Notes: a model not told the origin generated them from the letters alone. Shown: positions 3,677 through 23,280, counted from the stretch's first letter. The stretch is DNA of 64,000 nucleotides from Chloroflexota bacterium (GCA_965221905.1 OZ244922.1:3424001-3488000), one strand, 5' to 3'. Translations and numbers: made by a program.

Positions 3677-3682
3677 GGAGCC

Positions 3683-4495: not shown

Positions 4496-4706
4496 ACGCA
4501 CAGTAAGTTTGGGCGAACTGGTAGCACAGGTTGCAAACCTGTGCTACTTTGTTATTGACAGCGTGTTCTGACATGGGGGTGCTTGGCTTCAATCGCTGCA
4601 TTCGCTGATAAGACCAACAGCGGAGGGGGCACACGGCCCTCCGAAGCGAAGTATCTTTCTGGGATAAACGCCTTGCGTACAGTAGGGATTGTAGAGGAGC
4701 ACACAC

Positions 4707-5318: not shown

Positions 5319-5558
5319 CATCGCGCCCCTACCACTTGTTCTGCACTTCGTTTGCCGCAACAGGTAGCGGTATCGGACACATGGCAGTTGCTCCGGCCGG
5401 CAAAGTGCTCCCACGCCTAACGCAGCGTTTCAAGACTGCAATACCGCCCTCCATAACCGCGCTTGATGGCCCGTAAGCCAATGGTCTTGGTATGATGGTG
5501 AGAGTACTCTCTAATTGAGCAGTCACGAGCAACGGCTAGTAAGACGTAGGACAAAGGC

Positions 5559-6626
5559 ATGGCAAATAGCGGCGGTTACAACGTAGGTGTTCTCGGCGCC
5601 ACCGGCATGGTGGGGCGTCTCCTTCTCGATATCCTTGTAGAGCGGGCATTCCCATTGAAGGACCTGCGCCTCTTCGCTTCAGCAAACTCGCAGGGAAAGA
5701 AAATACAGTTTGGCGGCCAGTCGTATACCGTTGAGGAGACGACGGAGGATTCGTTCGAGGGCTTGGACATTCTCTTTGCCTCCGCCGCCACCGGTGCCAA
5801 CCGCCACTTCTCGCCAATCGCCGCCCGCGCGGGCGCCACGGTTGTGGATGACTCTGCGGCATTCCGCATGGATCCTGACGTGCCTTTGGTCATCGCGGGC
5901 GTAAACGACGACGATTTACTTCAGCACAATGGCATCATCGCCGGGCCGAATTGCTCCACGATACAGCTCGTGCTGGCGATCAATCCCATTCATCAGGTCA
6001 ATCCCATCTGCCGCATGGTGGTTGATACCTACCAAGCGGTATCCGGCTGGGGGCGAGACGCCATGGTGGAGTTGGACGACCAGATCAAGGCCAAGGCTGC
6101 CGGCAATCATGATGAGCTCCCGCGGCAAATCTTCCGCCACGAGATTCTGGGCAATGTGCTGCCGGAAGTCGATTCGTTCCTCGAGGATGGGTACACCAAA
6201 GAGGAATGGAAAGTCATCCACGAGACTCGCAAGATCATGCACGCGCCGGAGATGATGATTACGTGCACTGCGGTGCGGGTTCCCGTGGCCGTCGGCCACT
6301 CCGAGGCCGTGCATATGGAGCTCACCCGACCCATGACCGCCGACGCTGTCCGCGAGGTGCTCGCAGGCGCGCCGGACGTGCGCGTGGTGGATGATCCCAG
6401 CCGGGGGCTCTACCCGGTTGCCACCGACGCGGCCGGCACGGACGACGTGCTGATCGGCCGCATCCGCAACGACGTCTCCCACGAGAACGGTATCGCCCTG
6501 TGGGTGGTGGCCGATAACTTGCGCTGCGGCGCGGCTACAAATGCGGTGCGTATTGCCGAGATGCTGATCGAGCGCGACCTGCTGCACGGCTCGGCTGCAA
6601 CGGCGGCAAGCAGAAGTAGCGATTGA
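5559..6626 (+). CDS. asd: aspartate-semialdehyde dehydrogenase
   Basis: GATGMVG, PNCST, TYQAVSG, VRVPVAVGHSE, DNLRCGAA. Confidence 0.96.
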   Translation: MANSGGYNVGVLGATGMVGRLLLDILVERAFPLKDLRLFASANSQGKKIQFGGQSYTVEETTEDSFEGLDILFASAATGANRHFSPIAARAGATVVDDSAAFRMDPDVPLVIAGVNDDDLLQHNGIIAGPNCSTIQLVLAINPIHQVNPICRMVVDTYQAVSGWGRDAMVELDDQIKAKAAGNHDELPRQIFRHEILGNVLPEVDSFLEDGYTKEEWKVIHETRKIMHAPEMMITCTAVRVPVAVGHSEAVHMELTRPMTADAVREVLAGAPDVRVVDDPSRGLYPVATDAAGTDDVLIGRIRNDVSHENGIALWVVADNLRCGAATNAVRIAEMLIERDLLHGSAATAASRSSD

Positions 6627-6908
6627 CCTCAAGTGCCTCAGCGACATGCCGACTGCGCCAAATGAGCATTATCCGACTTTCTGTCGAGCATGGTATCCAC
6701 TTCAAGGCCGGTCTGATTGACTTTGGTCCTGAGGTTGCAGGGCCGATCAGCCGTGCCGGTACCGTCGGACTCCAATTCTGCGTGCACGGGTAATCTACCC
6801 ACAAGTGCTTGGACACTCGCTCTGTTTGTAGCTCGGCGCGTGCCTGCAAAGGGCACAGCGACAACAGTCCTCCAATCAGGACCTCAGGTCTTAGACGACG
6901 CACACCGC

Positions 6909-7157
6909 CTACTCATATACTGCGACGAGTACGGCGTCGTGAGGGTTCTGTAAATCGTTGAAGACGACGATGCAGCGTTTGCTCACCGTGATGGCTGTGG
7001 CGTTGAGGCCGCGATTTACGGCAATGCCGTTGAGGAAGGTGGGAAACGAGCCGGTAATCTGCACGTCCGCCAGCCAATTCGGGGCGTCGAATGCCCTGAT
7101 GATGCCGCTCAAGGCATAGCCGGGCGCGATCCCGCCGGAGAACTCTGATTGTGCCAT
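6909..7157 (-). CDS. small beta-rich virion protein, possibly spike or baseplate OB-fold-like
   Basis: 82 aa, last gene of the cluster, AAGGA-type RBS; beta-strand pattern (GIIRAFD..WLADVQITG..CIVVFND..DAVLVAVY). Confidence 0.5.
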   Translation of the reverse strand: MAQSEFSGGIAPGYALSGIIRAFDAPNWLADVQITGSFPTFLNGIAVNRGLNATAITVSKRCIVVFNDLQNPHDAVLVAVYE

Positions 7158-7311
7158 GGTTTCTTGTTCCTTCGGATAAGGGCAGTTTTCTTGCCCTATG
7201 ACAAATGTGCGTCTGCCCTACGAACAATCGACTCTATAGGGTGTGGGACTTCCGGTCAGTTTTGCATGGACAAGCCCCCGCGCTAGGATTGCTTGCAATG
7301 ACGCGAGTCTC

Positions 7312-9280
7312 TTAGGCCTCATCCAGGTCCCCACACTGCAGAACCATCGTGTAGTCCGCGTCGTGGGGTGTGTAGCGGTGGCTGATCCGCGCAATGCGCA
7401 GCTTGCCGTGGGCAAAGCCCGTGGTTTGAAAGTCGACCACGTCGCCGATTTGGAGCGTGGGATTGTAGGGCACGTCTACGGCATACGCGTTGCTATCGCG
7501 GCGGACGCCCGCCAGCACCGCTTCCGCGCGGCCCTGGCAGTCTGCGGCCTGCGTCAATTGGGTGTCGGTGACAAGGACTGTTTGCTCGCTGCCGTGCGTT
7601 CGCACTGCATCCCAATCCCAGGCCTCGCCCAACACACCCTTGCCCTGCACCAACACGTGATTTATTCCGTTGCGCTGCTGCCATGCGCCGACGAATTCCT
7701 GGCCGGTGTACGTCCACGTCGTCTCATCCGTCTGTGGAAACTCACAATGTACCGTACCGTCCGCTTCCACCCGCCACTGGAGCGCATTGAGCGCCACCAG
7801 GCGGTCTATCATCGTTTGCCACGGTTGACCGGCATGCAGGGCAAAAGCAGGCAAGGCGCGGTCAAAGCGGCTATCGCCGTCGTCGGTCATACGCAGCGCT
7901 CCGGCGCGGTACCACGCCTCGGCAAGCAACGCGCGCACAGTATACCCATTGTACGACCACGTCTGCGAGACGCGGCGGCGCGCCTGCACGCTCACGTCGG
8001 CGGCCTCCACACGCACCGTGCGATTCGGTAAGAGCGTAATGCCCTGCACAACGAGCTCGGCCATCGGCGCCGTTTCGATACCACCATCGGTTACATATCC
8101 GGCGCGCACATCAAGGGTCGCGCCCGCCCGCAATGTCTTGCCAAGCCTGCCATTGAGCGCGTCGTCCGCGTTGTCCAGGAGCAGGCGTGCTGTGCTCGTC
8201 TCGTTCGTTTGCTCTTCCCACTGGAATTCCAGCACGCGGCTGGATACGTCTTGGAACTGGTCCGGGTTTGTGGCCGCATAGCCCTCGTAGCGGTGAGCGG
8301 TCTCATGGTTTAACAGCCAGTAGTGGCGGGCATCCTGCCGCAGCCACGAGAATCCGGCGTAAGACTCATCTTCCACCGGCGTCCCCTCGGCAAAAGTGCC
8401 CCAGGCGTGGGCCGTACAGTAACGCCAGCGCCCGAAGTTGAGACCGGAGACCACGCCGTAGTCCCGTTCCAGGTATGCCACGCGAAACGCCTGCTCAAAC
8501 CCACTGTTCTACCGTGGGTTTGAGCAGGTCTCGCTGCGCCGTGCTGTCATCCACCCGTGCGACGGGCGTGAGCGGCTCCCAGATCGCGCCGTCGGTGCGG
8601 CAGCCCATAATAGAGGTACCGGTCGTGCCCGGCACGCCGCCCCATAACGACAGGGCAAGATGCCACGCCGTGCCGTCCCACGTGCCGCCAATACCGCCGC
8701 ATGCCGAAAAGGCGCCGTGGGACCATTCGTCTGCCTGCCAGCCTTGACCGGAGTCATAGAGCCGGAAGACGGTCACGCCACCGCCGGACTTATCAACCGC
8801 CAAGAAGATGCTGCCGTTGCCGCCGTAGCAGAGCGCGCGCACGATCTGACGGGCATTCCAAAGAGTCTCCGGGCTGCCCCACGTGGCTCCGCCGTCGGAG
8901 CTCGTCCGGCGATAGACTGTGGTGAACGTGACATAGACCGCCATCACGTCGCCATTGGGCAACACACCCGCGGCAACGCCCGCAGCGCCGGTGACGCGGG
9001 TTTGCAGAGTTGACCAAGCGGTCCATTGGCTTGCCTGGCTGGGGTCGGCAATGCGCTGATACGAAACGGTGGCTGAACGCACGCCCCGCTCCGGCGAGAC
9101 GTCCACGCGCCAGAGCGCGCCGCCGGTGTCTACGAAACAGGCGCTGGCGGCAGCGGAGCGCGGGTCGGTACGATAGAGTTCGTAGTGGTGCTCACCATCG
9201 CGCAATGTAAACTGCATTGCCGGTTGCCGTGCCGGTGCGTCTACGGCTGCGGCCAGGGTGTCGGATAACGTGCGTGCCAT
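7312..9280 (-). pseudogene. large tail/baseplate hub-like protein split by a +1 frameshift near 8500
   Basis: ORFs 8495-9280 and 7312-8481 join into ~655 aa if one base is removed; N-half has BNR-like RTSSDGGATW; C-end VPYNPTLQIGDVV is typical of tail hub proteins. Confidence 0.65.
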
Positions 9281-9282
9281 TG

Positions 9283-9720
9283 CTAGACCTCCCGCAACAC
9301 TACGTGCGTTTCCCACTCCAGCAGCCATAGCCGCTCTTTACCAAAGGGAATTACCCGATCCTCGCAGGCAGCGAAACGCACCGTATAACTATCCTCCAAG
9401 GGATCGACGAACGCATGGTCCTCGTTCAACTGTCGATAGAATTCCCAGAGCCAGTCGTGCCACTGCCGCGCCTTGGTGGCGTTCGTCGTGCCGTCGAGAT
9501 TACGCACGTTACTGCGGCACATGACGACGAAACCAAACTCGCGCTTTCCTAAGCCGCTCTCGACGTACGAAATCGAGCCTGCCGCTGTCCGACGCGCCTG
9601 CGCGAGACGCGGTTGGGTCATAGTAAATGTGCCGGGCTTTACGAAGAATCCCACCGGCACGCCGCCGTTCACGTTGGCGTTGGCCAGCGTCACGTTGCAG
9701 TCCATCCCTATGGTTGCCAT
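9283..9720 (-). CDS. putative tail protein, paralog of 10293-10700
   Basis: Shared motifs MxTxGxDCxVxL, FVKPG, GxGKxxxxFxV, FxDxLxxxxxV, EWExxVxLxE. Confidence 0.6.
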   Translation of the reverse strand: MATIGMDCNVTLANANVNGGVPVGFFVKPGTFTMTQPRLAQARRTAAGSISYVESGLGKREFGFVVMCRSNVRNLDGTTNATKARQWHDWLWEFYRQLNEDHAFVDPLEDSYTVRFAACEDRVIPFGKERLWLLEWETHVVLREV

Positions 9721-9847
9721 ATGGTCAATACTCCCCTCTCATGTCGGTATTCCAAGAGAACTTCAAAAGGATGCACAATCGGAACTCCGGCGATGCAATC
9801 CCAAAACTCGCGATGCAATCGGAAATCTCACAAGGACGCCACTCTTC

Positions 9848-10220
9848 CCGTTCGCCCTGAGCCTGTCGAAGGGCTCTTCATGGCGCGAACCTCTTTTCCG
9901 TTCGCCCTGAGCTTGTCGAAGGGTCGTTGGGTCGAAGAGCCCTCCTTGGCGCGGACCCTTTATTCCGTTCGCCCTGAGCCTGTCGAAGGGCCGATGGGCC
10001 CTCCACGGCGCGAACCCTCTTTCCGTTCGCCCTGAGCTTGTCGAAGGGTCGAAGGGCCCTCCACGGCTCCAACCCTCTTTTCCGTTCGCCCTGAGCTTGT
10101 CGAAGGGTCGATGGGCCCTCCACGGCGCGAACCCTCTTTCCGTTCGCCCTGAGCTTGTCGAAGGGCCGATGGGCCCTCCACGACGCGATCCTCTTTTCCG
10201 TTCGCCCTGAGCTTGTCGAA
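9848..10220. repeat. tandem array of 7 REP-like units (ccgttcgccctgagcYtgtcgaa), period ~50-67 bp
   Basis: Copies at 9848, 9898, 9965, 10023, 10082, 10140, 10198; same motif dispersed at ~16819, 19955, 20017, 31021, 47617. Confidence 0.9.
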
Positions 10221-10292
10221 CGGCAGGCATCCGGTACAAACACCTATTTACCCTCGCCATGACGACCCGTTTGCGCTACCGGCCCACGCCCT

Positions 10293-10700
10293 TCACGCCT
10301 CGACCAGCGATACCGCGATCTCCCACTCCGGCTGCTCCCAGAATCCCGCTGCCTCCGACACGCGTTCTTCCAGACTCAACGTGTGTACGCTGTGCTCTGT
10401 ACCCAGCCGGTCCGTAAAGCGCAGCGCCTCGGCCTTGGCGTAGGACGCCCGCAGGCGTGTACGGAAGGCAGCGGCAGCAGTAGGGTTAATTGTGCCGTTG
10501 CGGTTGAGGTGGTTGGCGAATGCGAGAACGGTGAAGTGCCAGACCTGCTTGCCCGCGCCAAGGTCAACTGCCGCGGGACCGGCCGCTGCCTCCGGCGCCG
10601 CGGCCAGAACTTTAGGAATCTCTACGCGATAGGACCCGGGCTTAACGAAATAGCCGTGTCCGTCCAGAATCACCGAGCAATCCTCACCAACGGTTGGCAT
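10293..10700 (-). CDS. putative tail protein, paralog of 9283-9720
   Basis: 135 aa, 6 bp downstream of the previous gene, motifs shared with 9283-9720. Confidence 0.6.
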   Translation of the reverse strand: MPTVGEDCSVILDGHGYFVKPGSYRVEIPKVLAAAPEAAAGPAAVDLGAGKQVWHFTVLAFANHLNRNGTINPTAAAAFRTRLRASYAKAEALRFTDRLGTEHSVHTLSLEERVSEAAGFWEQPEWEIAVSLVEA

Positions 10701-10706
10701 GGGTCA

Positions 10707-11081
10707 TTACCTTATCTCTACGAGTTTGACGACAATGCGGTTGGGCATGCCGGTCAACCCCAAACTGAGGCGTTCCTGCACGCGGTACGTGCGGACGCTC
10801 GCGACTTGTGCGCTGTCCGGCGTATCGGCAATCGCAACCACACCGGATAGGTCTACGTCCGGAGCGAACTCTGCCGTGGCATCCGGCCCATGACTGCGCC
10901 TGCGATTGCCGGGGTTTGCCGCGCCGGAGGATTCGTTTCGCTCCTCCTTCCACGTACACTGCGCCGCCGCGTACGCGGTGGCGCCGCCGTCATTCCGGAT
11001 CAGAGTGACCGTACGCAGCCGCCCGTGGCGGATCTGCTCACGGTTTGCCAACACCTGCGCGGCCTGCTTGCTATCGAGCAT
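10707..11081 (-). CDS. putative head-closure or head-tail joining protein
   Basis: 124 aa from ATG 11081 with GGAG RBS; position after the adaptor; beta-rich. Confidence 0.45.
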   Translation of the reverse strand: MLDSKQAAQVLANREQIRHGRLRTVTLIRNDGGATAYAAAQCTWKEERNESSGAANPGNRRRSHGPDATAEFAPDVDLSGVVAIADTPDSAQVASVRTYRVQERLSLGLTGMPNRIVVKLVEIR

Positions 11082-11260
11082 TGCAATTCTCCGTTCGTTC
11101 TTTGCACGTTGCTTTCTGCTGTTCCGCTGTGGCCTTGGACGCAGCACCAGAGTTAGTGCAGGGGAAAGTCGTCTGGCGGGCACCCGTTTCGACGCTTACT
11201 CAGAGCCTCGCCCATTCGCGATTCCGGCCAACAAAACTATGCGAATAGGCGCGATCCAAT

Positions 11261-11313
11261 CCGTCATTCCCGCGGAAAGCTTGCCCCGTACCTGATACGG
11301 GGCGGGAATCCAT
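11261..11313. repeat. REP-like palindrome family (gtcattcccgc...gcgggaatcc)
   Basis: Related copies at ~15293, 16983, 17160, 29795, 33310, 35471, 37450, 47477. Confidence 0.85.
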
Positions 11314-11422
11314 CTTCTCTGCGCAACCTGCCCACTTCCCCAGGCCGGGGACAAGCCCCCGTGCTACGGTCTAGCGCGAATGCAGGGCTTGCCAGGGCGG
11401 CCATGCGGAACGACTTTCGCAA

Positions 11423-12091
11423 TCATCGCGCCATGTCCGCGCCATCTACCGTCCACGCTACGCTCCCCCGCGTTTGCTGCGCCCGTTCCTGCCGCAGCAC
11501 GTCAAGCTCCTTCTCAAACGATTCACGCGCCGTGCTGCCCTTCTCCCACCACGCTCCGCTCACCATGCTCGTATCCACGCCGGCCCCTTGTTGGCCGTCT
11601 TGGTAGCGGAAGTTATCTGACTTTGGGGTCGCGTAGGCCAAGCACGCGTGAGCGTACGCGCCGGTCGTCAGCAGACCGGTATACGGGCCAGGCAGCGTCC
11701 ACAGGCTGTCGCTGGCGACGTGCTTGGTGCCCCAGCGCACACGCACCGCATCGGCGGCGCTAGGCGCTTCCGGCACGAGCAGAAAGACGAATCCCGGCGC
11801 GCCCTCGCTCGTAGGCAGCACCATGAAGGTGCAAAGCTTCGGAGGGTAGCAACCCGTGGGCCACTCCACCTCCTCCACGCTCCACACCTCCACGAGGCTG
11901 CTCAAGTCCACCAGCCGCGAATCCGCACTGGTGCTCAACGTGGCGTCGCGCGACCAGGGCAAAGCCCGCGATAGCTCGGCCAGGGCGCGGTCGATGGCGT
12001 GATCGAGGGCCGCGTCGCTGAAACGCGGTTCGGCGTCCGCCGGATCGAACAACTCGTTGCGCAACGAGCTGCGAAATTCGCTCAGTGTCAT
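11423..12091 (-). CDS. putative head-tail adaptor protein
   Basis: MTLSEFRSSLRNELFD...FSDAALDHAIDRAL helical N-terminus typical of adaptors; directly after the capsid gene. Confidence 0.6.
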   Translation of the reverse strand: MTLSEFRSSLRNELFDPADAEPRFSDAALDHAIDRALAELSRALPWSRDATLSTSADSRLVDLSSLVEVWSVEEVEWPTGCYPPKLCTFMVLPTSEGAPGFVFLLVPEAPSAADAVRVRWGTKHVASDSLWTLPGPYTGLLTTGAYAHACLAYATPKSDNFRYQDGQQGAGVDTSMVSGAWWEKGSTARESFEKELDVLRQERAQQTRGSVAWTVDGADMAR

Positions 12092-12260
12092 AGGTAATCC
12101 TCAAGTGTCAGTTGCTACGATGATGTCCGGCGCAACGAGATGCCGCGCTCAATTGAAGCTCATTACTAGAAGGCTCCCGTGGCGCGGCGAACTCAGGCCG
12201 CGCCAAGGCTTTGTTGAACATTAATGGTCAAACGGGGAACGTGATCCCCTCTTTCAGGGC

Positions 12261-12288
12261 GTAGGGGCACGACTTGTCGTGCCCCTAC
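12261..12288. repeat. GTAG-type REP palindrome (gtaggggcacgac-gtcgtgcccctac)
   Basis: Further copies at ~20968, 24822, 26215; related GTAG families at ~16942, 17118, 27465, 32774, 47568. Confidence 0.8.
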
Positions 12289-12390
12289 AGGAACATCCCT
12301 TTTCCCACCGGGGGGAGGGCTGGGGTGGGGGTCTCCCCTCACCCCGCAACGATGCATCAAGCACCCCATTGCCCCCAGCACACACAGGAC

Positions 12391-14385
12391 CTACGCTACT
12401 TCAGCCCAGTAAGCGCCCCGGTAGTCCAGCCAGCCGCCGCCAAACTCCCAGCGCATCTTGTAGCTGATCGCGTCGTTGGTAAAGACCGATCCGGCGGTTG
12501 GGTTATCCTGCACCAGCAGTTCCGGCGTCTCCTGACCGTTGATGAAACCGACCTCCAGGCTCTCGATCTGCGCCGGGTCCGCCATCAGGTAGTAGTCCTT
12601 GGCATCGCTGAACTGCGGCACCACGATCGGCTCCAGCATGCCTTGCAGCGGATTAGCGTCGTTATTCTGGCTGCCGGGCAGCAGCGTGCTGTTGAGAATC
12701 GTCACAGCCGTCCAATACAGATCCGGCGGCAGCAAGAGTTACCGGGGCTTGATGCCCAGGCGCTTATCCGCGCTATTGGTCTGCTTCATCATCCGCGTAA
12801 TCGCAGACTGTAGCGCCGTGGCCGCCAGCGCCGCGGTGCCGCGATTCTTGTGCGAGGTCTGGGTGCCGTCGTCGAAGACCTTCGTGCTGTCGGCGAGCGC
12901 AGGATTGCTTGTAAAGAGGCCGTACACGAACTCATTGATGGTCGTGGCCGCCGCGATCGCGAGCTTGGTAGGAATGCGTCGGATAGCTTCCAGGTCGTCG
13001 TTGAGTATCGCCTCGCGGGTGACCACCACCAGGTTGCCACGCTTGGCGGGCGTGTAGGTCTCTCGCGTGTCGTCCCACGCAAGGTTCGTGTAGGCCGCGT
13101 TCTCGTTGACCGTGCCAAGTGCCCCGAAATCATGCAGCAGCACCCGGTACTGGGGCTTGTAGTCGCGAATCGAGCGGATCGCGCAGAATTTCTTCCAGTC
13201 CTGGGGCTGCGCGCCGTAGTCCTGGACGAGACGCTTCGTAATGGCGTTGGCGAGCGCGTGGTTGAGCACGCTCGTGGTGACCTCGTTGGCCTCGCGCACG
13301 GTCGAGAGCTCCAGATTCAGGGTGCCCCGGATTTCGGTATCGCCCGTGATCTGCACGTATGCCTCTCGAATGCTGGACCACGCAGGAATAGGCTCTTCAG
13401 AGGCAACGTCCCGCACGCCCAAGAGTCGCGCCAAGCCGGCCTCGGCCGCGGCTAAACCCCAGCTTGCTCCGGCGCCGCCCATGCTGATGCGCGCCTTCTC
13501 CGCGCCCACGCCCCGCACGGCGTGCGCAGAACCCGTGAGCGCGCGCACGGTCTCTACCTCTTCCTGAACGGCCTGTTCCAAGACGGCAGTGGTAAAGGTC
13601 TGCCCTTCAAAGCGGCGGCGCAGCTTGCCCTTGATCGCGGCGGGCAGAGCCACGGTATCGAGCCGCTCGTGGAGAGCGGTCATGCAGGCGAGTTTCCCTT
13701 CTGCCTCGGCGAGACGGGCATCTACCGTCATCGTGGCAGTATCTTCCATGAGTACCTCCTCGGTATGTGGTGAATCTGTTGACTCCGCCCCGGCATGGGG
13801 CTCGACGTTTGCTGTGTCGGTACGTTGGTCTCCTTGCATAGCGTTCTCCTTGTCTGTGCTGAAAATCTCTTGCGCTGCCAAGACGCGCTCGAACGCGCCG
13901 CCGGCCGCGGCCCGCGTGACCACGTCGCAGGAGCGCAACACCGGGATGCGTTCCACTACTTGGATGCTCTTGCCGTTCTGCTGCTGGGTGCGCACCGACG
14001 CCAGAGAGTCAATCGAGAGACCCAGCACGTCAGGGCGTCCCATTTCCACAGCTTCCTGCACCAAACTCCAGAGCCAGTCGGCGCTGCTAAAGATATGGAG
14101 GGTGGCCCGCACGCGGTCACCCTCCAGCCGGGGTTCGCGATAGAACCCCACCACGTCGCGGACGCTCCGTGGCTTGTGGATGCTGTCGCCGGCGGGCGAC
14201 GGATGGTCGGCAAAGGCTTTGAGGCCGTCGATCTGCTGCGCCACGTCCTGCAACGCTTGGGGCGTGAAGTAGCGGCCGTTCCGCGACATGCCTTGCCGGA
14301 GCACGGTTACGGCTACATCGCGTTGCGGCGCGTCGAGCTGCGCCTCCTGTAACGGTACGAGCAGCGCCAGGTGTTCGGGTTTCAA
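12391..14385 (-). pseudogene. prohead protease-scaffold-major capsid fusion (Mu gpT-like C-terminus) with in-frame TAA at 12739-12741
   Basis: N-terminal SRNGRYF, FADHP, GLSI, SCDVVTRAAAGG; capsid motifs LGIKPR*LLLPPDL, YYLMADP, EVGFING, DYRGAY in the same frame across the stop. Confidence 0.8.
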
Positions 14386-14591
14386 TGCGTCATCCTCCCT
14401 TCGATGTAATGCGATATTTCTTGTCCTGCTTCAACGACCCGTTGGGCGGGTTTGCAACCTGCGTCCACCCGCCTGCGCATGGCACAACCGGATAGATGTC
14501 TTTGTGAAATCCTCTTTCCAAACAGTGAAAGGGCCCTCCTGAATGCGCTGACGTCTCATGCCGGTGCGTGGACATTGGTACAATAGCCAGC

Positions 14592-15173
14592 ATGAACCTA
14601 CACAAACCCCCTTCCCCCACTGCGTCGCTCACCGTTGTCGTCGCGCCTTCTCAAGCCGGCGGCTACTGGGCAGACCTGCCGACTCTCCCCGGCTGCGTCG
14701 TACAGGGGGAAACCGTTGACGCCGTGATTGCCGACCTCACGATGACGGCGGAGATGCACTTGGCGCAGGAAGACCCGCCCGCCGACACCCTCGCTTTGCA
14801 CAACGTCGCCGTTGACATGGCCGATGTGACGTACCGCCTTACGGCCGTTACCTGGCACGGCGAGCGACGAGCTTGTGCGGTTGCGATACCCCTCCACGAC
14901 CGGGTGGCGCACGGAGAGACCGTGGAAGAGGCCCTGGCGCAACTCCGCCGGCTGCTCCCAACCTGGATCGTCGCCGATCTCGCCGAAGGCGAGCCCGTGC
15001 CGATAGTCGCGGTCGCGGAGACGGCAATTATTCATCCGCGTGTGGGCCAAGCCACCGGCGCGCCCCTTTCCCAATCCGAGGCCCTCAAGCCTGAAGTCGT
15101 CCTGGTTCTGCTCCGCGCGGCGGGTATGACCAAAGAGCAACTGAGCGAGATGCTGGATTACGACCCAGAGTGA
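14592..15173 (+). CDS. tandem HicB-like domain protein with HicA-like C-terminal helices
   Basis: GGYWADLPTLPGCVVQGETVDA and AHGETVEEALAQL..GEPVP; tail LKPEVVLVLLRAAGMTKEQLSEML. Confidence 0.7.
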   Translation: MNLHKPPSPTASLTVVVAPSQAGGYWADLPTLPGCVVQGETVDAVIADLTMTAEMHLAQEDPPADTLALHNVAVDMADVTYRLTAVTWHGERRACAVAIPLHDRVAHGETVEEALAQLRRLLPTWIVADLAEGEPVPIVAVAETAIIHPRVGQATGAPLSQSEALKPEVVLVLLRAAGMTKEQLSEMLDYDPE

Positions 15174-15504
15174 CTGAATCTGCTCGGCAACCCCCTCTCC
15201 CTCGAGGGAGAGGGCCGGGGTGAGGGGGAATCTTGTCAGCCCAGCCTCGCCTTTTTGGCATGACTGCAACCCTTTGGAATGCAACTGTGATCCGTCATTC
15301 CCGCGAAAGCGGGAATCCATCTTCTCCGTTTGCACCTTGAACACCGGCCCCGTACTCGATACGGCGCATCGACGCGATACGGCGCCGGAATTCATCCGAC
15401 CAGCCCCCGTATACTCCCGCTTTCGCGGGAGTGACGGATTGAGTTCCCATTCAAGTGACCTGAGATTCGGCAGATAGCACGTGGCAGTCCAGTGGCGCAT
15501 CCCT

Positions 15505-16743
15505 TTACTCCTCTTCAGCCAAGAAGCGACGGAAGAGACGCGCGGCGTCCTCAGCTTCCAACCAGCCCTCTGTTTGAGCGAGTTGCAGCGACCGCGCGAA
15601 CGACTCGGCGTGCGGGCCCGCCACGTGGGCAACGTCCGGCTGGAGTTCCTGAAAGACCACGCGAAAGGCCGTATCAACATTCGCATCGAGCGCTCCGGCG
15701 TCTTGTTTCCCCTGAATCGCTCGTGCTACGAGACGACGCAGGTAGCGGCCGAAGAGTTCCTGGCGGCGTTGGAAGCGCCGCAGCGTCGGCAGGCCCATCT
15801 CGGCCGCCGTCGCCCGGTTGACGTGCCCGCCTTCGGCGAGGTAGTGCTCCGGCAAGCCTGCGCCCGCCGCTATCATCAGCTTGAGCGCGCGACCGTCTGC
15901 GGCGACGTCATCAGCGCCAATGGAGGGCTGCACCGGCTGCCAGTTCTCCGCTTCGTTATGGAAAACCACGGTGCCGGGCGCCGGCGGCTGGGCGTAGGCC
16001 GCCATCTTGGCCAGCAGGTCGTTCCGCGTTGCGCCCCGTACGGTCACGTCGTAGATGAAGCTGCCTTTGAGGCGGTTAATCCGCGCACGGTCCACCAGCC
16101 AATCTCGATAGCGTTTGAGCCACGGCAGCAGCGCTGCCAAGTCGCTGCGCCCGCGCAACGCGTTTGACACTCGATTGATGGTAAGGTGCTCCATTTCCGC
16201 TGCCGCTACCCAGTAGCCCGGGTCATTGCCGACTCCTCGCACGCGGTACCGGTGCACCTGCTCGATGTCTTCTGCCGCGGTCTCAATGCGTTCGATGAGC
16301 AGCGGATCGAGCTGTCGCAGCCTGATTTCGCCCGTAAGCGGATCGGTGAATACGCGCACGAACTGCTCGCCGTAGAGGGAAAGCTCCGTGTAGAGGCTAT
16401 AGATGCGCGTGTCCATGGTGTTGTCCGGGTGCCGCCAGAAGGCATCCACCACCTCCTGCACCGCCGCACTCGCGCACGCGATGCGCACGCCCCCGCCCAG
16501 CACGAAATTGGCCTGAATGTCGATCACGGCATACGCCAATGGGTTGGTGACGTAGGCTTCGTAGACCTCCCGCAGCAGTCGCTGGTGGTCCCAGAGCGCG
16601 TCGTCCCGCGTCTCCGAGGCCCCGGTCACCTGGCGGTAGCCGATGTCTTCAGCCGCCACCGCCTCCTGCACGCGCGTCTGGATGAGATCGCCAAAGAGGC
16701 GCTCGCCCAGGCGTTGCCACCACTCACTAGTCTGTATTGCCAT
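15505..16743 (-). CDS. phage portal protein
   Basis: NPLAYAVI, ELSLYGEQF, RGRSDL, GAGLPEHYL, NRATA; position after the terminase. Confidence 0.85.
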   Translation of the reverse strand: MAIQTSEWWQRLGERLFGDLIQTRVQEAVAAEDIGYRQVTGASETRDDALWDHQRLLREVYEAYVTNPLAYAVIDIQANFVLGGGVRIACASAAVQEVVDAFWRHPDNTMDTRIYSLYTELSLYGEQFVRVFTDPLTGEIRLRQLDPLLIERIETAAEDIEQVHRYRVRGVGNDPGYWVAAAEMEHLTINRVSNALRGRSDLAALLPWLKRYRDWLVDRARINRLKGSFIYDVTVRGATRNDLLAKMAAYAQPPAPGTVVFHNEAENWQPVQPSIGADDVAADGRALKLMIAAGAGLPEHYLAEGGHVNRATAAEMGLPTLRRFQRRQELFGRYLRRLVARAIQGKQDAGALDANVDTAFRVVFQELQPDVAHVAGPHAESFARSLQLAQTEGWLEAEDAARLFRRFLAEEE

Positions 16744-17296
16744 TGCGCTCGCTTTCTGTGTGTTGTCATGGCTCTTGTCGCATCGGGAAGCTTGATTGAA
16801 CGGCAAGCATCCGACTCACCGTTCGCCCTGAGCCTGCCTATCCTGAGCTTGTCGAAGGGTCAAAGGGCGCCCGTTCATGGTTCGACAGAGCCTGTGCAGA
16901 GCCTGCCGAAGTGCTCACCACGAACGGATTTGCAAACATTCGGTAGCGCAGGTTTGCAACCTGCGATCCTAGCCCATCTAGCCCGTCATTCCCGCAAGTG
17001 CGGGAATCCATCTTGGCTGTGTCAACAATCCCTCCCCTACAGGGCACAAGTCCCCGCACTGCGTCGCAATTCGTAGTCTTTCTCTTTGGCTGCGTGGAAA
17101 ACCGGTGGCCCTCTTCCGGTAGCGCAGGTTTGTAACCTGCGTTTCTAGCCCGTCTAGCCCGTCATTCCCGCGCAAGCGGGAATCCATCTTCTACGCGCAC
17201 ATCCTGGACTCCGGCTTTCGCCGGTGTGACGGATGGTAGTCCGACGGACCGATGGCAACACGGTCTGTGCGGAACCAGAAGAAAGCAGATTCATCA

Positions 17297-18875
17297 TCAG
17301 TACCCCTCCGTTTGCAATTCCTGCGGCGGAAGCGCGACCGAAACGGCTGGCGGCGCGCCGCCCTCCACGGTGCGTGTGAGCAGGGCCAGAGCCATCACAT
17401 AATCATCGTGTCCCTGACTGGCGGGCACATGGAAGGCGATCCGATTGCCCGGATGCAATGCCATTCGGCACCGCCGCACCTGCCGCCAGCACTCCCGGTA
17501 CTCCGGCGACCCGTCGTCCGCCCACAGTTGCAGGCGTCCGCCGCCGACCAAGGCGCGCACGTCGTAGCCCAGCGCGCTCTTCGACTGCGCCGTGAAGGTA
17601 AACGGTTCGATGCGGTCGTGGCCCAACCGCGCGCTCAAGAAACGCGCGAGCGCGTCGCCCATGCCGGTGGCGTCTATGCTTGCTCTTTGGACTCGCCACT
17701 CCTCGCCCAGCAGGCGCACGAGGCGCGCGTATTGCTCGGTGGTGGGCATAACCGGTCCACTGGTAGGCGTTTACGATCGCGACCGCGGGCAGGGCAAAGC
17801 CGAGCACCGGGTCGTGCCGCCAGACCCGCTCGCCGATCAAGACCACCGTGCTATCGCGCCGGGACCGACCGGCTTCCCGGTTACCGGCGGCGGTCTCTTC
17901 GCCGGCCACGTCCACGGCTGCGACGTAATGCGCATCCGAGCGGGGTTGCTGCTGCCGGACGTGTGTGCCCTGCAACGCCGCTTGCAACGGCGGCGTGAAG
18001 AAGCCGGTGGCGTCGTCCACCTCTTCCAAGCGGTACTGGGTACGGATGACCAAGTCATCCTCGCCGCGCTGGCGAATCTGCGCCTTTACCGCCGCTCCGT
18101 AGCGCTGGTTTACCTGTGCCCCCACCTGCCACGGAAAGGAGAAGTGCCGCTGCTCGCCGGTGCGTTCCGCATGCACGAGATTCAGCGCCTTGTACTTAGC
18201 AAGCAGCGTGTCTTTCGTCCACGGCGTACCGTAGAGCACGATGGTGGCGTTCTGCGCCGCCGCCATCGGCAGAAACTCTTTGGCGAACTTTTCCTCATCC
18301 ACGTCCTGGGCTTCGTCTACCTCCAGCAGCAAATCGGCGGTAGCGCCGACCACGTTGGACTGCTCGTGCGCCGAGAGGAACATCACGCGCGCGTTGCCTA
18401 CGGTCACCATGCTGCCCTGGGTACGTTTCCAATACGGCGCCAGCCAGGGATGGTCCAGCAGCGATTCGAGGCGCAGGCGGGAGATGAGGGTCTGCGGGGT
18501 CAGCGTGGGGGCGCACTTCACAATCGTGCCACCGCGCCGTTGATAGCGGTACAGGAGATAGGCTTCGAGATGCGCCGAAAGCTCATTCTTGCCCATCTGC
18601 CGCGCCATCTCCACGGTGAAAATAGCCCCTTGCCGCCGCCGCACACTCGCGAGCACCGGCCGCGCCACCGCCAACTGGTAGGACCGCAGCGGACGCCCCA
18701 CAAGCACACGCGAAAAGTGCGCAATGTCGTTGAGGGTATAGCGGAAGAAGGTGCGGGCGATTTCATTCCCGTCTTCCCCGTGCGGGACGGGCGACAAGTG
18801 AGAAGCGCCGGTCTCCGCGTCTCTCTTCTGTGTGTCTGCAACGTTCGTTTTCATTGAATGCTCGTTACTACTCAT
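17297..18875 (-). pseudogene. terminase large subunit with +1 frameshift near 17750
   Basis: LRSYQ, ARQMGKN (Walker A), LEVDEAQ (Walker B), YGTP, AVDVAG; nuclease motifs IDATGMG and HDDYVMALAL continue in another frame; joined length ~525 aa. Confidence 0.85.
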
Positions 18876-18924
18876 TCCGGCAGGTCATCGGAGGCGCATG
18901 CGATTCTGCGCCCCGTGTTCCCAT

Positions 18925-19167
18925 CTACTGCCCCGGCACGATGCGCAGGAGGCCGTTGAGGAAAGCGGCGGCAAACGGCGAAGCGAAGATGCCGATCAGG
19001 ATGACGTTGATCTTCGCTTCCAGCCGGGCGTAGTCCTCCCGCGTGTTCTCGGCCAACTCGCGCGTCACCTGACCGAAGGCGCAACCGTGTTGCGCCAGGC
19101 GGTCCGCCAGGTCTTGGTGGCGCGCGTCGTGCTTCCTCGGCGTGTGCGTGTTTGATTCATTCAGCAT
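18925..19167 (-). CDS. small coiled-coil plus single-TM protein (possibly holin-like)
   Basis: 80 aa; REDYARLEAKIN followed by hydrophobic VILIGIFASPFAAAFLNGLL; start overlaps the upstream gene. Confidence 0.55.
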   Translation of the reverse strand: MLNESNTHTPRKHDARHQDLADRLAQHGCAFGQVTRELAENTREDYARLEAKINVILIGIFASPFAAAFLNGLLRIVPGQ

Positions 19168-19564
19168 GGTGTTTTTCCTGAGTGCTTTCTTCCTGCTGCT
19201 CCCGCACCTCGATCTCCGCAATCACCTGGCGCATCGCCTCGGTCAGGTTGTCTTCGGCTCGGGGCGAAAGTTGAGCGCGCGCTTTCAGGGCGTTGAGAAG
19301 AATGTCCGTCAGGTCCTTTACCGCCTTGATCTTGTCCGCCGGTGCGCGCTCGTCGTCTTCGGCATTGAGCATCTGGGCTGCGATGCGGCGAATGAGCATG
19401 CGCAGCAGTCCGATCTCGTCCTGGAGCAGCGGATTATCGGCGGTCCGCTCCAACGCCGACAGCTCATGTTCGGCGAAGAGGTCGGCGTAGAGACTTCTAG
19501 GTTGCTTCTTGCGTTGGGTCACTGGGTTGTTTTCCTTTTCGTCATGGCTATGCGCTTCGTGCAT
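19157..19564 (-). CDS. putative terminase small subunit
   Basis: Helical LYADLF..LQDEIGLLRMLIRRI; two genes upstream of the large terminase; start codon uncertain. Confidence 0.55.
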   Translation of the reverse strand: MHEAHSHDEKENNPVTQRKKQPRSLYADLFAEHELSALERTADNPLLQDEIGLLRMLIRRIAAQMLNAEDDERAPADKIKAVKDLTDILLNALKARAQLSPRAEDNLTEAMRQVIAEIEVREQQEESTQEKHHAE

Positions 19565-19781
19565 GGCAGGAATAGTGTTCTGTGCAGTGCCTTTCCCGCC
19601 GTTCCTCCTGTTTTTGGTCGGCGCGCCGTAGAGTTACAGCGGGGACACCTCGCGGCATGGCGCGGCCTTTGCCAAGCGTTACAGGGAGGGCATCGATGGC
19701 ACTGTGTGGTACTCGTCCATAGTTTTGGGGCTGCATAAAGGTACATTCAAAAATAATATAAAACTTAAGGGGTAAAAGGGG

Positions 19782-19810
19782 TTGTATTTTTACTAAATAT
19801 TTACTATACT
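19782..19810 (+). promoter_or_regulatory. sigma70-type promoter facing lexA
   Basis: TTGTAT-N17-TATACT with AT-rich upstream tract; palindrome TAAATATTTA in the spacer. Confidence 0.65.
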
Positions 19811-20309
19811 GGGAAAAACACGGTGCAGAGTATGAGAACACAGGAGGTTTAGCAGGTGCCGTGGCTGTGCGAACAGACTGGATCGCTGCGCCAACAGACT
19901 GGATTGGCACTGACGAAGAGGGGTCTTTTGATTACTTGGCCGGCGCCAATTTTACCGTTCGCCCTGAGCCTGTCGAAGGGTGAACGGATGTGCTGAGCAC
20001 AGGTGGTGTTCCTTTACCGTTCGCCCTGAGCCTGTCGAAGGGTGAACGGATGTGGCACTGAGAGAACCGCAGTACATGCGCACACTGTCGTTCATACTTC
20101 GACCCTTCGACAGGCTCAGGGCAGGCAGGCTCAGCACGAACGGTTTTCACAGACTGCACAAACACCCAAGAAGAGAAAGAAAGCGCCGGGTTGCGGTTTA
20201 CGAATGGGTCTTCATTTAAGCAGCAAGCACGGCGACAGACCCTGCACGCAAGAAGCCCGGTGGCAGATTTACCGCTTAGTAGCGTCTAGCGACGGAGAGG
20301 AAGGCGCAC

Positions 20310-20948
20310 ATGAAAGAAACACCTATGGGTAAGAAACTTACCAGTAAGCTGCTTACCCATAAGCAACGGCAGGTGCTGACGTTTCTCACGCGCGTACAGC
20401 AAGAGGGACGCTGGCCCACCTTGGAAGAGATTGCCCGGTGCATCGGCGCGCGCTCACCGGCGGCGGCGCACCACCATCTGAAGCGCTTGGAAATCAAAGG
20501 GCACCTGCGCCGCACGGCCTGGGGCACCTACGAGCTTACGCCCCAGGTGCAGATGTTGGAGGGCTTGGGAGTAGCGCGCGTACCGGTGCGCGGCACGATT
20601 GCCGCCGGTACCGGCGTGGAGGCGGTGGAGGCAGTGGAAGACTGGCTCACCGTGGATAGCGTCTTCGCGCGTCATCCCGATGTCTACGCGCTGCGCGTGC
20701 AGGGCGACAGCATGGTGGATGCCTGCGTCTGCAACGGCGACCACGTGCTCATTCGCCCCCAGCCCGCTGCGGAGAACGGCGAGATGGTGGCGGCCTTGCG
20801 CGAAGACGGCACCGCCACGCTGAAGTACCTCCGCCGCGACGACGGGCAAGTATTCCTTGTACCCGCCAACCCGTATTACCCTACGCTCCCCGGCAACAAC
20901 ATCACCATTCTCGGCAAGGTGGTCGGCGTGATCCGCGTATTCGCATGA
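20310..20948 (+). CDS. lexA: LexA family repressor
   Basis: LTHKQ..PTLEEIA winged HTH, IAAG cleavage site, GDSM catalytic Ser, TLK catalytic Lys, ILGKVVG. Confidence 0.9.
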   Translation: MKETPMGKKLTSKLLTHKQRQVLTFLTRVQQEGRWPTLEEIARCIGARSPAAAHHHLKRLEIKGHLRRTAWGTYELTPQVQMLEGLGVARVPVRGTIAAGTGVEAVEAVEDWLTVDSVFARHPDVYALRVQGDSMVDACVCNGDHVLIRPQPAAENGEMVAALREDGTATLKYLRRDDGQVFLVPANPYYPTLPGNNITILGKVVGVIRVFA

Positions 20949-21060
20949 GAACTGTAGGGGCGCTTGCTGTAGGGGCGCTTCGCGAAGCGCCCCTACGTAA
21001 AAAACGACCCAACGTTACATACCAGATACCGTTCCAGCTAACGAAGGAGAGGAAAGAGCA

Positions 21061-21729
21061 ATGGCAGCAACAATGCCCTTAATGAATGCGACGCCGTTGG
21101 CGAAAGCAACGCCTGTGGCGAAAGAGCCGACGCCCGCACGGCCGCCTGACGAACTGCTCGTCACGGTGCAGGCGGCAAAGCAGGGCAATACCACCGCCCA
21201 GATGCTGCTCATGGACCGCTTGCGCCTGCCGATGGAGCGTCAGATACGGCGTCTCAGGCGGAGCTTCCGGCCTTCGGAGGCTGAAGACGCCCGCCAAGAG
21301 GTGCAGCGCCTCTTTCTGGAGCTGCTCTACGAGTATGACTATACGCGCAACGGCAACTTCGAAGCCTACATGTGCACCATGCTCAAGTGGCGCGTACACA
21401 ACTTCGGCCGCACCTCCCGGCGTACTGCGCCGCCGGACCCCGCCCATAATCAGTCGCTCAGCAATGAGATTACGGCCTATCTCGCCGAGCAGCGCTTGCG
21501 CGCAGGCACGCCCACGGCGGAACCGGCAGTCCACGTCGAGCTCGATCAAGCCCTGCGGATGCTCACGCCCAAGCAGAAGACGGTGCTCTACGCGATCTAC
21601 TGGCAAGACCGTCGTGTGGTGGACATCGCCGCGCGCATGGGCGTAAGCCCGCAAGCTGTGCGCGCTATCCGCCAACGGGCGGAAAAAATCCTCCGCCAGC
21701 GCCTGGAAGCCTCCGGCGCCGCGCCTTAG
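21061..21729 (+). CDS. sigma-70 family alternative sigma factor
   Basis: Region 2 AEDARQE..YDYTRNGNFEAY; region 4 LTPKQK..IAARMGVSPQAV. Confidence 0.85.
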   Translation: MAATMPLMNATPLAKATPVAKEPTPARPPDELLVTVQAAKQGNTTAQMLLMDRLRLPMERQIRRLRRSFRPSEAEDARQEVQRLFLELLYEYDYTRNGNFEAYMCTMLKWRVHNFGRTSRRTAPPDPAHNQSLSNEITAYLAEQRLRAGTPTAEPAVHVELDQALRMLTPKQKTVLYAIYWQDRRVVDIAARMGVSPQAVRAIRQRAEKILRQRLEASGAAP

Positions 21730-22021
21730 ACCGATTCACAGTCACGGACGCCGCAACACAGCTAACAATCTGGTGAAGGAGCGTGAACGCATAGCGAACC
21801 GAGGACACAGTACCGCGCCTAAAGTGGCTGAGAGCAGGCTCGTACTGCGGACAATCTAAAACAGAAAACCAATCTGCTCGACACGACAGACAATATTGTG
21901 TAACATCCTCCCAAACCAGTATGAACTGCGACATCTACTCAAATTATGACGCCGTGTAGGATGCGCCTTCGCGCCCACCACCGACGGTAGTCGCAACGTT
22001 ACCAAGAAACGATACAATGGC

Positions 22022-22780
22022 ATGCAGGGGAAGGAGCAACGCATGACCGCAACTACCGTGCTAAATGTATCTGAAGAGCGGACACGAACCAAGAAGCCAC
22101 ATCGCATGGTGCAAAACGGTTTGCCAACCAATGAGCTTGTATTCAGCGCCCATGTTGGGGGAAATGAGGACATTTTCCCGCAGATTCTATCCCTATACGT
22201 ACCGAAGTCGAGCGTCATTGCAGATGTAACGTATGGCGAGGGCGTATTTTGGCGCAACATTCCTGAAAATCAATATAAAGTTCTCGGCACTGACATTCAG
22301 AATGGAGTCGATTGCCGCGAATTGCCCTATCCTGACGGTGAGATCGATTGCGTAGTTCTTGACCCACCGTATATGCATTCCCCAGGCGGCACTGCCCATC
22401 GCAGCCAAAGCGCGTTCGAGAAGCACTATCGAAATAACGGAACAGGCAATAGAACTACAAAGAAGTACCATGATGCAGTATTGGCACTGTATGAAGAGGC
22501 CGGTGTAGAGGCTCACAGAATTCTTCGAGATCGAGGAGTCTTTATCGTCAAGTGCCAAGATGAAGTGTGCTCCAATCGTCAACACTTCACTCATGTAGAG
22601 ATCATGCAGTCGTACATTGGACTAGGCTTCGTCGCGGAAGATATGTTCGTCGTAGTAAGAAACAACCGACCCGGTGTGAGTCGTACTGTCAGGCAAGTCC
22701 ACGCGAGAAAGAATCATTCCTATTTCCTTGTATTTTGGAAACAAGGTGCTACTGGAAAGATTTGGGAGCCCCCCAAGTGA
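22022..22780 (+). CDS. amino (N6A/N4C) DNA methyltransferase
   Basis: Motif I ADVTYGEG, motif IV VLDPPY, RILRDRGVFIVK. Confidence 0.85.
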   Translation: MQGKEQRMTATTVLNVSEERTRTKKPHRMVQNGLPTNELVFSAHVGGNEDIFPQILSLYVPKSSVIADVTYGEGVFWRNIPENQYKVLGTDIQNGVDCRELPYPDGEIDCVVLDPPYMHSPGGTAHRSQSAFEKHYRNNGTGNRTTKKYHDAVLALYEEAGVEAHRILRDRGVFIVKCQDEVCSNRQHFTHVEIMQSYIGLGFVAEDMFVVVRNNRPGVSRTVRQVHARKNHSYFLVFWKQGATGKIWEPPK

Positions 22781-23280
22781 ACGCCGTGGGCTTGTTGGTC
22801 ACCATCATTCGAGAACACGCGCCAAAAGACATCTGGCAAGACTCTCCGCTTATAGGCTATCGAATGCTAGGCAATACGAATAGAGGCGAAATAGGTGAGA
22901 CGTTTATTCGGCGTTACTTGGAACTGAACAATATCCCGGTTGGAAACGGAAGTCGAACATCCCAGACCGATCTCCGCATTGGAACTTTGCAATTCGAAGT
23001 CAAAACAGCATCACTTGGAGCGAACCGTACATTTCAATTCAATCATGTTCGCTTGGATCGAGGCTATGACTACCTCCTCTGCCTAGGAATCTGTCCCCAT
23101 CACGTCGTGTTCAATATGTGGCGCAAAGGCGCGGTTGCTGAAAACCGGGCGGGAACACTGGTCCGAATGGCAGAAGGCCAAGCTGTGACGTACAAACTTA
23201 CCAAGAAACTCGACGGCATGGTAGATATCGCCAAGTTACCAGGATTGGTGAGAACCAGCCTCGACGCTGAGCAAAATTGA
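22777..23280 (+). CDS. putative type II restriction endonuclease (PD-(D/E)xK)
   Basis: GTGA overlap with the MTase; GEIGE, TDLRI, EVKTA, FQFNHVR. Confidence 0.7.
   Translation: MNAVGLLVTIIREHAPKDIWQDSPLIGYRMLGNTNRGEIGETFIRRYLELNNIPVGNGSRTSQTDLRIGTLQFEVKTASLGANRTFQFNHVRLDRGYDYLLCLGICPHHVVFNMWRKGAVAENRAGTLVRMAEGQAVTYKLTKKLDGMVDIAKLPGLVRTSLDAEQN

Follow-up and report, generated by a model that had tools for sequence, protein, structure and literature searches.

A cluster of 11 co-oriented genes with phage-type products was characterised in a 64,000-nt stretch of DNA from a Chloroflexota bacterium (GCA_965221905.1 OZ244922.1:3424001-3488000), here called the window, in whose coordinates all positions are given. 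The cluster lies on the minus strand at 6909-19564 and is bounded by asd (5559-6626) and by a divergently oriented lexA (Table 1). Comparison with other genomes of the genus and of the phylum suggests that it is probably one representative of a phage-derived gene family which is fixed in Chloroflexota chromosomes, is vertically inherited and makes particles for the delivery of DNA, with the copy in the window being broken.

Gene content of the cluster

The gene order is a small terminase (terS) candidate, a gene for a membrane-anchored 98-aa protein, the large terminase (terL), the portal, a fusion of prohead protease and capsid, a head-to-tail adaptor, the small genes p158, p135 and p145, a large tail gene and lastly a gene for an 82-aa protein. 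The original prediction for this stretch had described a compact, co-oriented virion cluster resembling gene transfer agents (GTAs), and all of the parts that it listed were located on the minus strand. Two of its assignments needed revision. The gene termed terS-like fits that identity by position, but no family match supports it, the protein atlas providing only weak leads (0.81-0.82; T5 small terminase and DUF1804), while what had been read as separate hub-like and spike-like genes is one gene in two parts, with a single frame of 654-690 aa in relatives. The family as a whole is predicted to comprise terL, portal, protease-fused capsid, adaptor and ring proteins with a tail-tube fold, to which a propeller-bearing tail gene is added in this genus.

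For the packaging and head genes, family searches gave recognisable matches. The N-terminal part of terL corresponds to phrog_675 (E 4.9e-5) and its C-terminal part to Terminase_6C (22.9 bits, cut-off 22.6), with phrog_5909 also matched. The capsid fusion was matched by Phage_capsid_4 in two segments (E 3.5e-23 and 8.8e-13), by phrog_4523 and by NF045541 (E 8.7e-73, below the cut-off of that model). The 98-aa membrane protein is kept in the congeners at 70-96% identity and in G017, a genome of another family of the class (f2), at 64% over residues 38-92. The protein p158, with identities of 59-95% in the congeners and 32% in G017, may be a neck or head-completion protein judging from its position.

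The predicted structure of p145 (pLDDT 80.9, pTM 0.72) has a tail-tube fold. A Foldseek search of the PDB matched it to the phiCD508 baseplate chain 9gb2_S (E 1.7e-5, TMq 0.65). The best matches as a group were chains of the tube-initiator or Dit-like type from the baseplates of phiCD508, phi812, diffocin and pyocin R2, with TMq of 0.66 or less, and the antifeeding prophage (AFP) was matched as well. Lambda gpV and chains of RcGTA were weaker structural matches (TM 0.37-0.42 for RcGTA). Named matches in BFVD were Dit-like, tube or tail proteins, and the protein atlas gave hypothetical proteins of Chloroflexota and viruses, with DUF6711 on one third of one cluster. The model of the tail gene product is weak overall (pLDDT 49.7), with block means of mostly 62-87 for residues 60-260, a segment for which structure matching found a resemblance to sialidase/lectin beta-propellers (TMq 0.2-0.25). 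The protein may thus possess an N-terminal beta-propeller-like domain and a C-terminal tail/hub-like part, the latter suggested by weak PHROG matches. In both loci where it was placed (G004 and G010), the 82-aa gene follows the tail gene at a distance of about 150-300 nt. No Pfam or PHROG match with an E-value below 0.02 was obtained for the terS candidate, the 98-aa membrane protein, p158, p135, the 82-aa protein or four small proteins of G017.

Family searches matched no tape-measure, lysin or replication families among the cluster genes. Only two PF00589 recombinases occur in the whole genome, about 1 Mb from the cluster (serine recombinases were not searched for), and no att repeats were seen at the locus, where the only repeats are of the repetitive extragenic palindromic (REP) type. 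The features of a functional temperate prophage, namely contiguous integrase, replication and lysis genes with att sites, were consequently not found, and the absence of integrase, att repeats, replication, endolysin and tape-measure genes noted in the original prediction was borne out. So was its observation on the larger intergenic gaps, since the repeat scan found these to be occupied by REP repeats of two families. No tRNA gene was found in the window and no Rfam family in 6600-22000.

Table 1. Features of the cluster and its immediate surroundings, in window coordinates
Feature	Position	Strand	Evidence or remark
82-aa protein, last cluster gene	6909..7157	-	single match in 15/16 congeners, 68-96% identity; no family match
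Large tail gene, split (277-aa piece 8495-9328, 389-aa piece 7312-8481)	7312..9328	-	phrog_1887 E 1.1e-6, phrog_196 E 0.001
Tail-gene lesion, 4-nt insertion (GTTT on coding strand)	8497..8500	-	frameshift, creates TGA at 8495-8497; alignment with 4 congeners
p145, predicted tail-tube-fold (Dit/tube-initiator-like) protein	9283..9720	-	predicted structure
Array of 7 REP-type repeats between p145 and p135	9844..10235		repeat scan
p135, paralog of p145 (31-34% identity)	10293..10700	-	sequence comparison
p158, small protein	10707..11183	-	no Pfam or PHROG match
Head-to-tail adaptor, SU10 type	11423..12091	-	SU10_adaptor PF24175, 29.1 bits, cut-off 27
Prohead protease/scaffold/major capsid fusion, HK97-type capsid, interrupted	12391..14385	-	Phage_capsid_4
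Capsid lesion, in-frame TAA (TAC>TAA)	12739..12741	-	Tyr or Phe at this codon in all 25 other loci
HicB-like/UPF0150 gene, between portal and capsid	14568..15173	+	family searches
Portal	15505..16806	-	phrog_10963, E 8.5e-39
Large terminase terL, split	17297..18875	-	ATPase part in frame of 17403-18875; nuclease part 17297-17749
terL lesion, 1-nt insertion	17749..17751	-	alignment with 4 congeners
98-aa small protein with hydrophobic C-terminal segment	18925..19221	-	sequence; no family match
terS candidate, 135 aa, first gene	19157..19564	-	by position only; no Pfam or PHROG match
AT-rich block of ~100 nt between terS and lexA	19723..19829		alignment; nearly invariant in 8 genomes
lexA, only copy of the host	20310..20948	+	TIGR00498 154.9 bits, cut-off 110.95; PF01726 and PF00717
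ECF-type (extracytoplasmic function) sigma-70 family gene downstream of lexA	21061..21729	+	TIGR02937 51.4 bits, cut-off 42.9

Lesions in the window copy and conservation in the genus

The structural genes of the window copy are not intact, as terL carries one additional nucleotide, the capsid fusion an in-frame TAA and the tail gene four additional nucleotides. In the congeners terL is a whole frame of 525 aa and the capsid fusion one of 664 aa. Positions 7-149 of the Phage_capsid_4 profile precede the TAA and positions 158-261 follow it, and in the genome search one TAA was flagged in the capsid of G000 only among the congeners. Logan contigs from runs X1 and X2 (one study), X3 (another study) and X20 (an RNA run) were compared with the window. 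Those from X1 and X2 showed no differences over 7000-9872, 11289-15317 and 17163-19979 at a depth of about 57-73, and those from X3 also span the tail lesion with no differences; these three runs may include the source sample. As contigs derived from reads reproduce all three lesions, they are not an artefact of the assembler. The window copy thus appears to have lost its function recently, by three independent mutations in terL, the capsid and the tail gene.

Over the REP array the read depth was 2000-19000 (bin means about 7,000-12,000 over 9470-10457) versus about 60-70 elsewhere. The contigs of the X20 metatranscriptome match the cluster of a relative, including its tail gene, p145, adaptor, capsid/hicB, terL and terS, and lie on parts of 8679-19681. 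Being short, of low depth (2-7) and mostly about 92-97% identical, they cannot show transcription, and DNA carry-over is possible.

One copy of the portal is present in 15 of the 16 congeners at an identity of 88-97%. The sixteenth genome is 69% complete and is also without matches to lexA, the sigma gene and polynucleotide phosphorylase (PNPase). Gene order and the lexA-sigma flank are identical in all 15 carriers, and the asd flank is retained in G005 only. No frameshift was found across the 11 genes in 10 of the 15; G008 is rearranged near a contig end and G007 has insertions of 2.8 kb and 1.7 kb inside the cluster. Internal stops were looked for in the portal, terL and capsid of 12 congeners. 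The terL gene was free of them, and so was the capsid except in G013, where it is frameshifted and in two pieces. A TAG was flagged in six portal matches and is gone from the profile matches, which begin further in.

The level of conservation is that of housekeeping genes. Identities among the 15 carriers are 82-97% for asd, with the portal equal or higher in every case, and 89-98% for PNPase, with the portal within two points in 13 (all but G003 and G002). The portal genes of G000 and G010 differ at 190 of 1251 nt, and a hand count from the list of invariant alignment columns distributes these over codon positions 1, 2 and 3 as 28, 16 and 146. An excess of this kind at third positions (77%) is a signature of purifying selection. 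The single syntenic copy throughout the genus, together with the clade-wise presence in the phylum described below, is what mostly vertical inheritance and co-diversification with the host would produce.

A two-domain HicB/UPF0150-like gene sits on the opposite strand at the same spot in all 15 congeners (74-99% identity). Neither this gene at the G017 locus nor a HicA partner was found.

Distribution and dispersal in Chloroflexota

Within the class, families f2 (1/1), f5 (6/6) and f3 (3/6) gave portal matches, and f4 (0/4) and f6 (0/7) gave none. G017 of f2 has a compact cluster which is without the tail gene, lexA or the sigma gene. In four complete f5 genomes the portal adjoins the capsid, a single intact terL lies 0.9-1.8 Mb away and the adaptor and tube-fold pair 32-183 kb away, with every gene present in single copy. 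In one of the genomes, G020, terL is flanked by guaA and genes for a glycosyltransferase, an M50B peptidase, a peroxiredoxin and a solute-binding protein. Single-copy homologs of p145 adjoin the adaptor in other families, and the SU10 adaptor has single-copy homologs in f5, f2 and Ktedonobacteria. The tail gene was found to be confined to this genus.

A search of species-representative genomes gave 173 portal relatives, nearly all from records titled Chloroflexota and including cultured Ktedonobacteria. Five of these cultured strains possess capsid, terL, adaptor and tube-fold genes, each single-copy and open, and in dispersed positions: terL is separated from portal and capsid by about 0.39 Mb in Thermogemmatispora tikiterensis and T. 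aurantia, the four loci are 0.13-0.84 Mb apart in Ktedonobacter sp. SOSP1-85, and the genes are on three contigs in Ktedonospora formicarum, while those of Tengunoibacter all lie within about 16 kb. Around the portal of T. tikiterensis no informative family was found except an ABC transporter. Three of the portal relatives (L070, L099 and L113), at 41-43% identity, come from one metagenome-assembled genome titled Proteobacteria and two titled 'uncultured bacterium', for which mis-binning, mislabelling or transfer may be responsible.

For the phylum, 401 Chloroflexota genomes with completeness of at least 90% were sampled evenly. Portal and capsid were each found in 79 of them and occur together in 74, every one of which has terL as well. 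Overlap between the genome lists was compared by hand, and the tallies include the unpublished G064 and G284, on which alone no statement rests. The ten discordant genomes are all drafts, nine with 90-710 contigs and G199 with 7. Presence is clade-wise, with 12/12 in f1 and 30-32/35 in f25 versus 0/28, 0/27, 0/26, 0/18 and 0/17 in other groups. There is nearly always one copy; double matches are mostly split halves, and G333 has two full-length matches.

The terL profile also matches 58 genomes which have no portal or capsid matches. These include all ten of a family with genomes of 1.4-2.1 Mb, mostly in single copy (E 1e-113 to 1e-139). Insertions affect other carriers besides G007: in G140 terL is in two pieces 20 kb apart, and in G117 the portal is in two pieces 42 kb apart.

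Among cultured phages, the nearest capsid is that of Microcystis phage Mae-JY22 (PP438414.1), at 30% identity. A profile search of IMG/VR found 39 portal relatives, 28-57% identical and classed as viral, where a query with the single portal protein found none. Five long records were inspected and terL was found in four of them. The full-length terL matches (G422, G423 and G424) are 8-22 kb from the portal or capsid, and downstream in G422, for which the strands are known; G426 has a partial match only, near the portal. This spacing of terL is unlike the layout of virion genes, and the records look like host fragments of the same kind. A tyrosine recombinase is present in four of the five, lying about 0.8 kb or less from the portal in three (L130, L135 and L132).

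Control, affinities and possible role

It had been proposed in the original prediction that the cluster has its own LexA and is switched on by the divergent lexA-sigma pair. The lexA gene is the only one of the genome (one tblastn match) and is present as one copy per congener, and its product matches the LexA equivalog model; a LexA of the cluster's own is therefore not supported. The sigma gene adjoins lexA in all 15 congeners and the pair stands next to the cluster in the same 15, an arrangement seen nowhere else among the genomes examined. In G028, which has no portal match, lexA and the sigma gene are likewise adjacent and co-oriented (G028:C15:210570-211997), and for this reason the pair appears to constitute an independent host module. 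The AT-rich block in front of lexA holds a sigma-70-like promoter directed towards lexA, as read by eye (TTGTAT at 19782-19787, a spacing of 17 nt, and TATACT at 19805-19810). In a consensus scan for promoters and terminators the counts matched chance expectation, and the lexA promoter of this genome was not among the sites listed. The motif GAAC-N4-GTTC has no site in the window, with 0.93 expected, and may not be the motif of this lineage. The lexA promoter contains the inverted repeat GTAAAA-N10-TTTTAC, of which the genome has no second exact copy and one further site at one mismatch; this does not exceed the reversed control, and no operator shared between the cluster and other loci was found by these motif searches. 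Given an adjacency restricted to the genus, the pair retained in G028 and the lack of a shared operator, control of the cluster by lexA and the sigma factor is conceivable but unsupported.

Two features lie outside the cluster. A gene for a putative Uma2-family endonuclease (PF05685, E 6.5e-33) is present at 4707-5318 between dapB and asd. Beyond the sigma gene, in a patch of lower GC content (53%) at 22022-23280, a gene for an N4/N6 DNA methyltransferase (phrog_24333, E 1.9e-63) overlaps a 237-aa gene without known family. Both have tblastn matches after the sigma gene in 9 of the 15 congeners at 70-98% identity (20-kb stretches), and they are probably a restriction-modification pair.

Among the criteria which PMC9662315 gives for GTAs and related viriforms are structural proteins like those of caudoviruses, endogenised genes often at multiple loci, and mostly vertical inheritance with co-diversification. 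Further ones given there are the packaging of mostly random host DNA, a head too small for all of the encoding genes, and delivery to other cells (PMC9662315). The cluster agrees with the genomic part of this description because it is of phage ancestry, has no mobility genes, is present in one copy and syntenic in the genus, is conserved at the level of housekeeping genes with an excess of third-position changes, and has unlinked counterparts elsewhere which co-occur and remain intact. The caudovirus-like proteins are terL, the portal, the HK97-type capsid fusion, the SU10 adaptor and the tube-fold proteins. The genes occupy one locus in this genus and at least three in f5 and most of the Ktedonobacteria examined, and in f5 the loci are more than 0.9 Mb apart, which rules out packaging of all of them in one piece.

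Like the RcGTA-type agents (Rhodogtaviriformidae) as presented in PMC9662315, the cluster consists of head, packaging and tail genes derived from a caudovirus without integrase or replication genes, and like GTAs in that account it is chromosomally fixed, vertically inherited and multi-locus in some hosts. It differs from RcGTA in the fusion of capsid and protease, in the absence of a tape measure and a long tube, and in the phylum of its host. The PDB, which holds RcGTA (6tba and 6toa), gave no sequence match at E of 0.01 or less to the capsid profile and none to the tail gene. Phage Mae-JY22 likewise fuses protease and capsid in a gene of comparable length and position, after which come small genes of neck size; however, the annotation of its 41-kb genome includes a tape-measure-like protein and additional tail genes, and these are lacking in the cluster. 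Capsid-forming satellites of the cf-PICI type (capsid-forming phage-inducible chromosomal islands) combine genes for terminase, portal, protease, capsid and connector in a similarly compact arrangement, but they carry integrase and replication genes and are sporadic, whereas the cluster has no integrase, is vertically inherited and includes genes with tail folds.

The genes are of phage ancestry, are fixed, single-copy and under purifying selection, and elsewhere in the phylum are dispersed over multiple loci. Domestication is accordingly a conclusion which we would hold with high, if incomplete, confidence on genomic grounds. That gene transfer is the role selected for is a proposal to which we would give slightly less than an even chance. 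In such a role, some signal would lead a cell to make capsids, which the terminase would fill with DNA through the portal and the fused protease would mature. A short tail without tape measure, composed of the adaptor, two tube-fold rings and the hub/propeller protein, would then close the particle, and on release the particles would deliver DNA to neighbouring cells in the manner of GTAs. We infer all of these steps, from the formation of particles and their DNA content to release and delivery. Somewhat more tentatively still, the family may be an ancient GTA of the Chloroflexota themselves, taken over from a phage whose capsid was fused to its protease before major classes of the phylum diverged (the carriers include the class of this genome and Ktedonobacteria), with its genes scattered later and its tail cut to a few rings without a tape measure. 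Of the GTA-like system originally predicted, a domesticated, structural-only and long-resident Chloroflexota lineage distinct from RcGTA agrees with the genomic evidence; control by LexA and sigma is not supported by it, and the copy in the window is inactivated.

A number of observations weigh against a particle-making family fixed for DNA delivery. Neither lysis genes nor a recognisable small terminase were identified in the cluster. Single lesions are present in three of the 15 congeners (p135 of G005, capsid of G013 and adaptor of G006). Among other carriers, the capsid of G192 has a TAA, and the terL-family matches of G131, G075, G286, G223, G164 and G182 were flagged for one or two internal stops. 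As the tail gene is confined to the genus, the tail of the particle may differ or be missing elsewhere. Co-diversification is read from synteny, from copy number and from a comparison of identity ranks with those of two housekeeping genes. Lastly, the recombinases near the portal in IMG/VR records indicate that some members of the wider family may be, or may recently have been, integrative elements.

The main rival to a role in gene transfer is another function of the particles. The genes would be domesticated and would make particles, but these would serve as killers like PBSX, as decoys or interference against phages, or as capsids which borrow the tails of other phages. PBSX of Bacillus subtilis is a phage remnant of structural genes only, kept by its host, SOS-inducible and with a sigma-like late activator, in one contiguous myovirus-like cluster with a sheath. 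This resembles the design which was originally proposed for the cluster, although no sheath or tape measure is present here and the link to LexA and sigma is simple adjacency in one genus. A function of this kind would suit a core which outside the genus consists of head and neck genes (terL, portal, capsid, adaptor and tube-fold protein), the tail gene being genus-specific, as well as the lack of uptake and lysis genes and a position beside lexA which, in this genus, recalls SOS-induced defective prophages. It fits less well with the retention of intact ATPase and nuclease parts in terL even where this gene stands alone among housekeeping genes, which points to selection on DNA packaging, and general family searches (PADLOC was not searched) matched no toxin or defence family in the cluster. 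We regard it as an unlikely but serious alternative.

It is very improbable that the cluster is an old cryptic prophage remnant, functionless and decaying, whose wide presence reflects slow loss. Decay of this kind would be expected to spare neither the portal, conserved at the level of PNPase and above that of asd with its differences concentrated at third positions, nor genes unlinked by up to 1.8 Mb, which stay open and among which terL accompanies portal and capsid without exception; what it would explain are the three lesions in this genome, the REP elements which have invaded the intergenic gaps, and the damage in congeners, with single lesions in three and insertions or rearrangement in two more. 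An active temperate phage or capsid-forming satellite family inserting repeatedly at the same site can practically be discounted, since the relatives classed as viral in IMG/VR and their tyrosine recombinases, which might suggest it, are set against a locus without integrase, replication genes or att repeats, a single copy per genome with identity ranks following those of housekeeping genes, a scattering of the genes among housekeeping genes in f5 and Ktedonobacteria, and a position of terL in the IMG/VR records which is not that of a virion gene layout.

Domesticated particles for the delivery of DNA, broken in the present genome, thus remain the reading which we consider probable. To our knowledge only a handful of independently domesticated GTAs are known, and how frequently phages have been tamed for DNA exchange is an open question; no published description of such a system in Chloroflexota was found in the literature searched, as judged by titles and abstracts. 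The family described here is a candidate GTA lineage from a phylum which is large, dominant in the environment and little studied. The signatures of domestication in this family (single copy, conservation at the level of housekeeping genes, and unlinked genes which co-occur intact) are as clear as those by which known agents are defined. It is also worth mentioning that host genes such as these are filed as viruses by virus-prediction pipelines, as the 39 relatives in IMG/VR illustrate. Because named cultured strains of Thermogemmatispora, Ktedonobacter and Tengunoibacter carry the genes, the proposal can be tested at the bench, and the broken copy in this genome beside the intact copies of sister species offers a natural loss-of-function comparison. 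If the proposal is true, this would be the first such agent in Chloroflexota and among the most widely inherited outside the Alphaproteobacteria.

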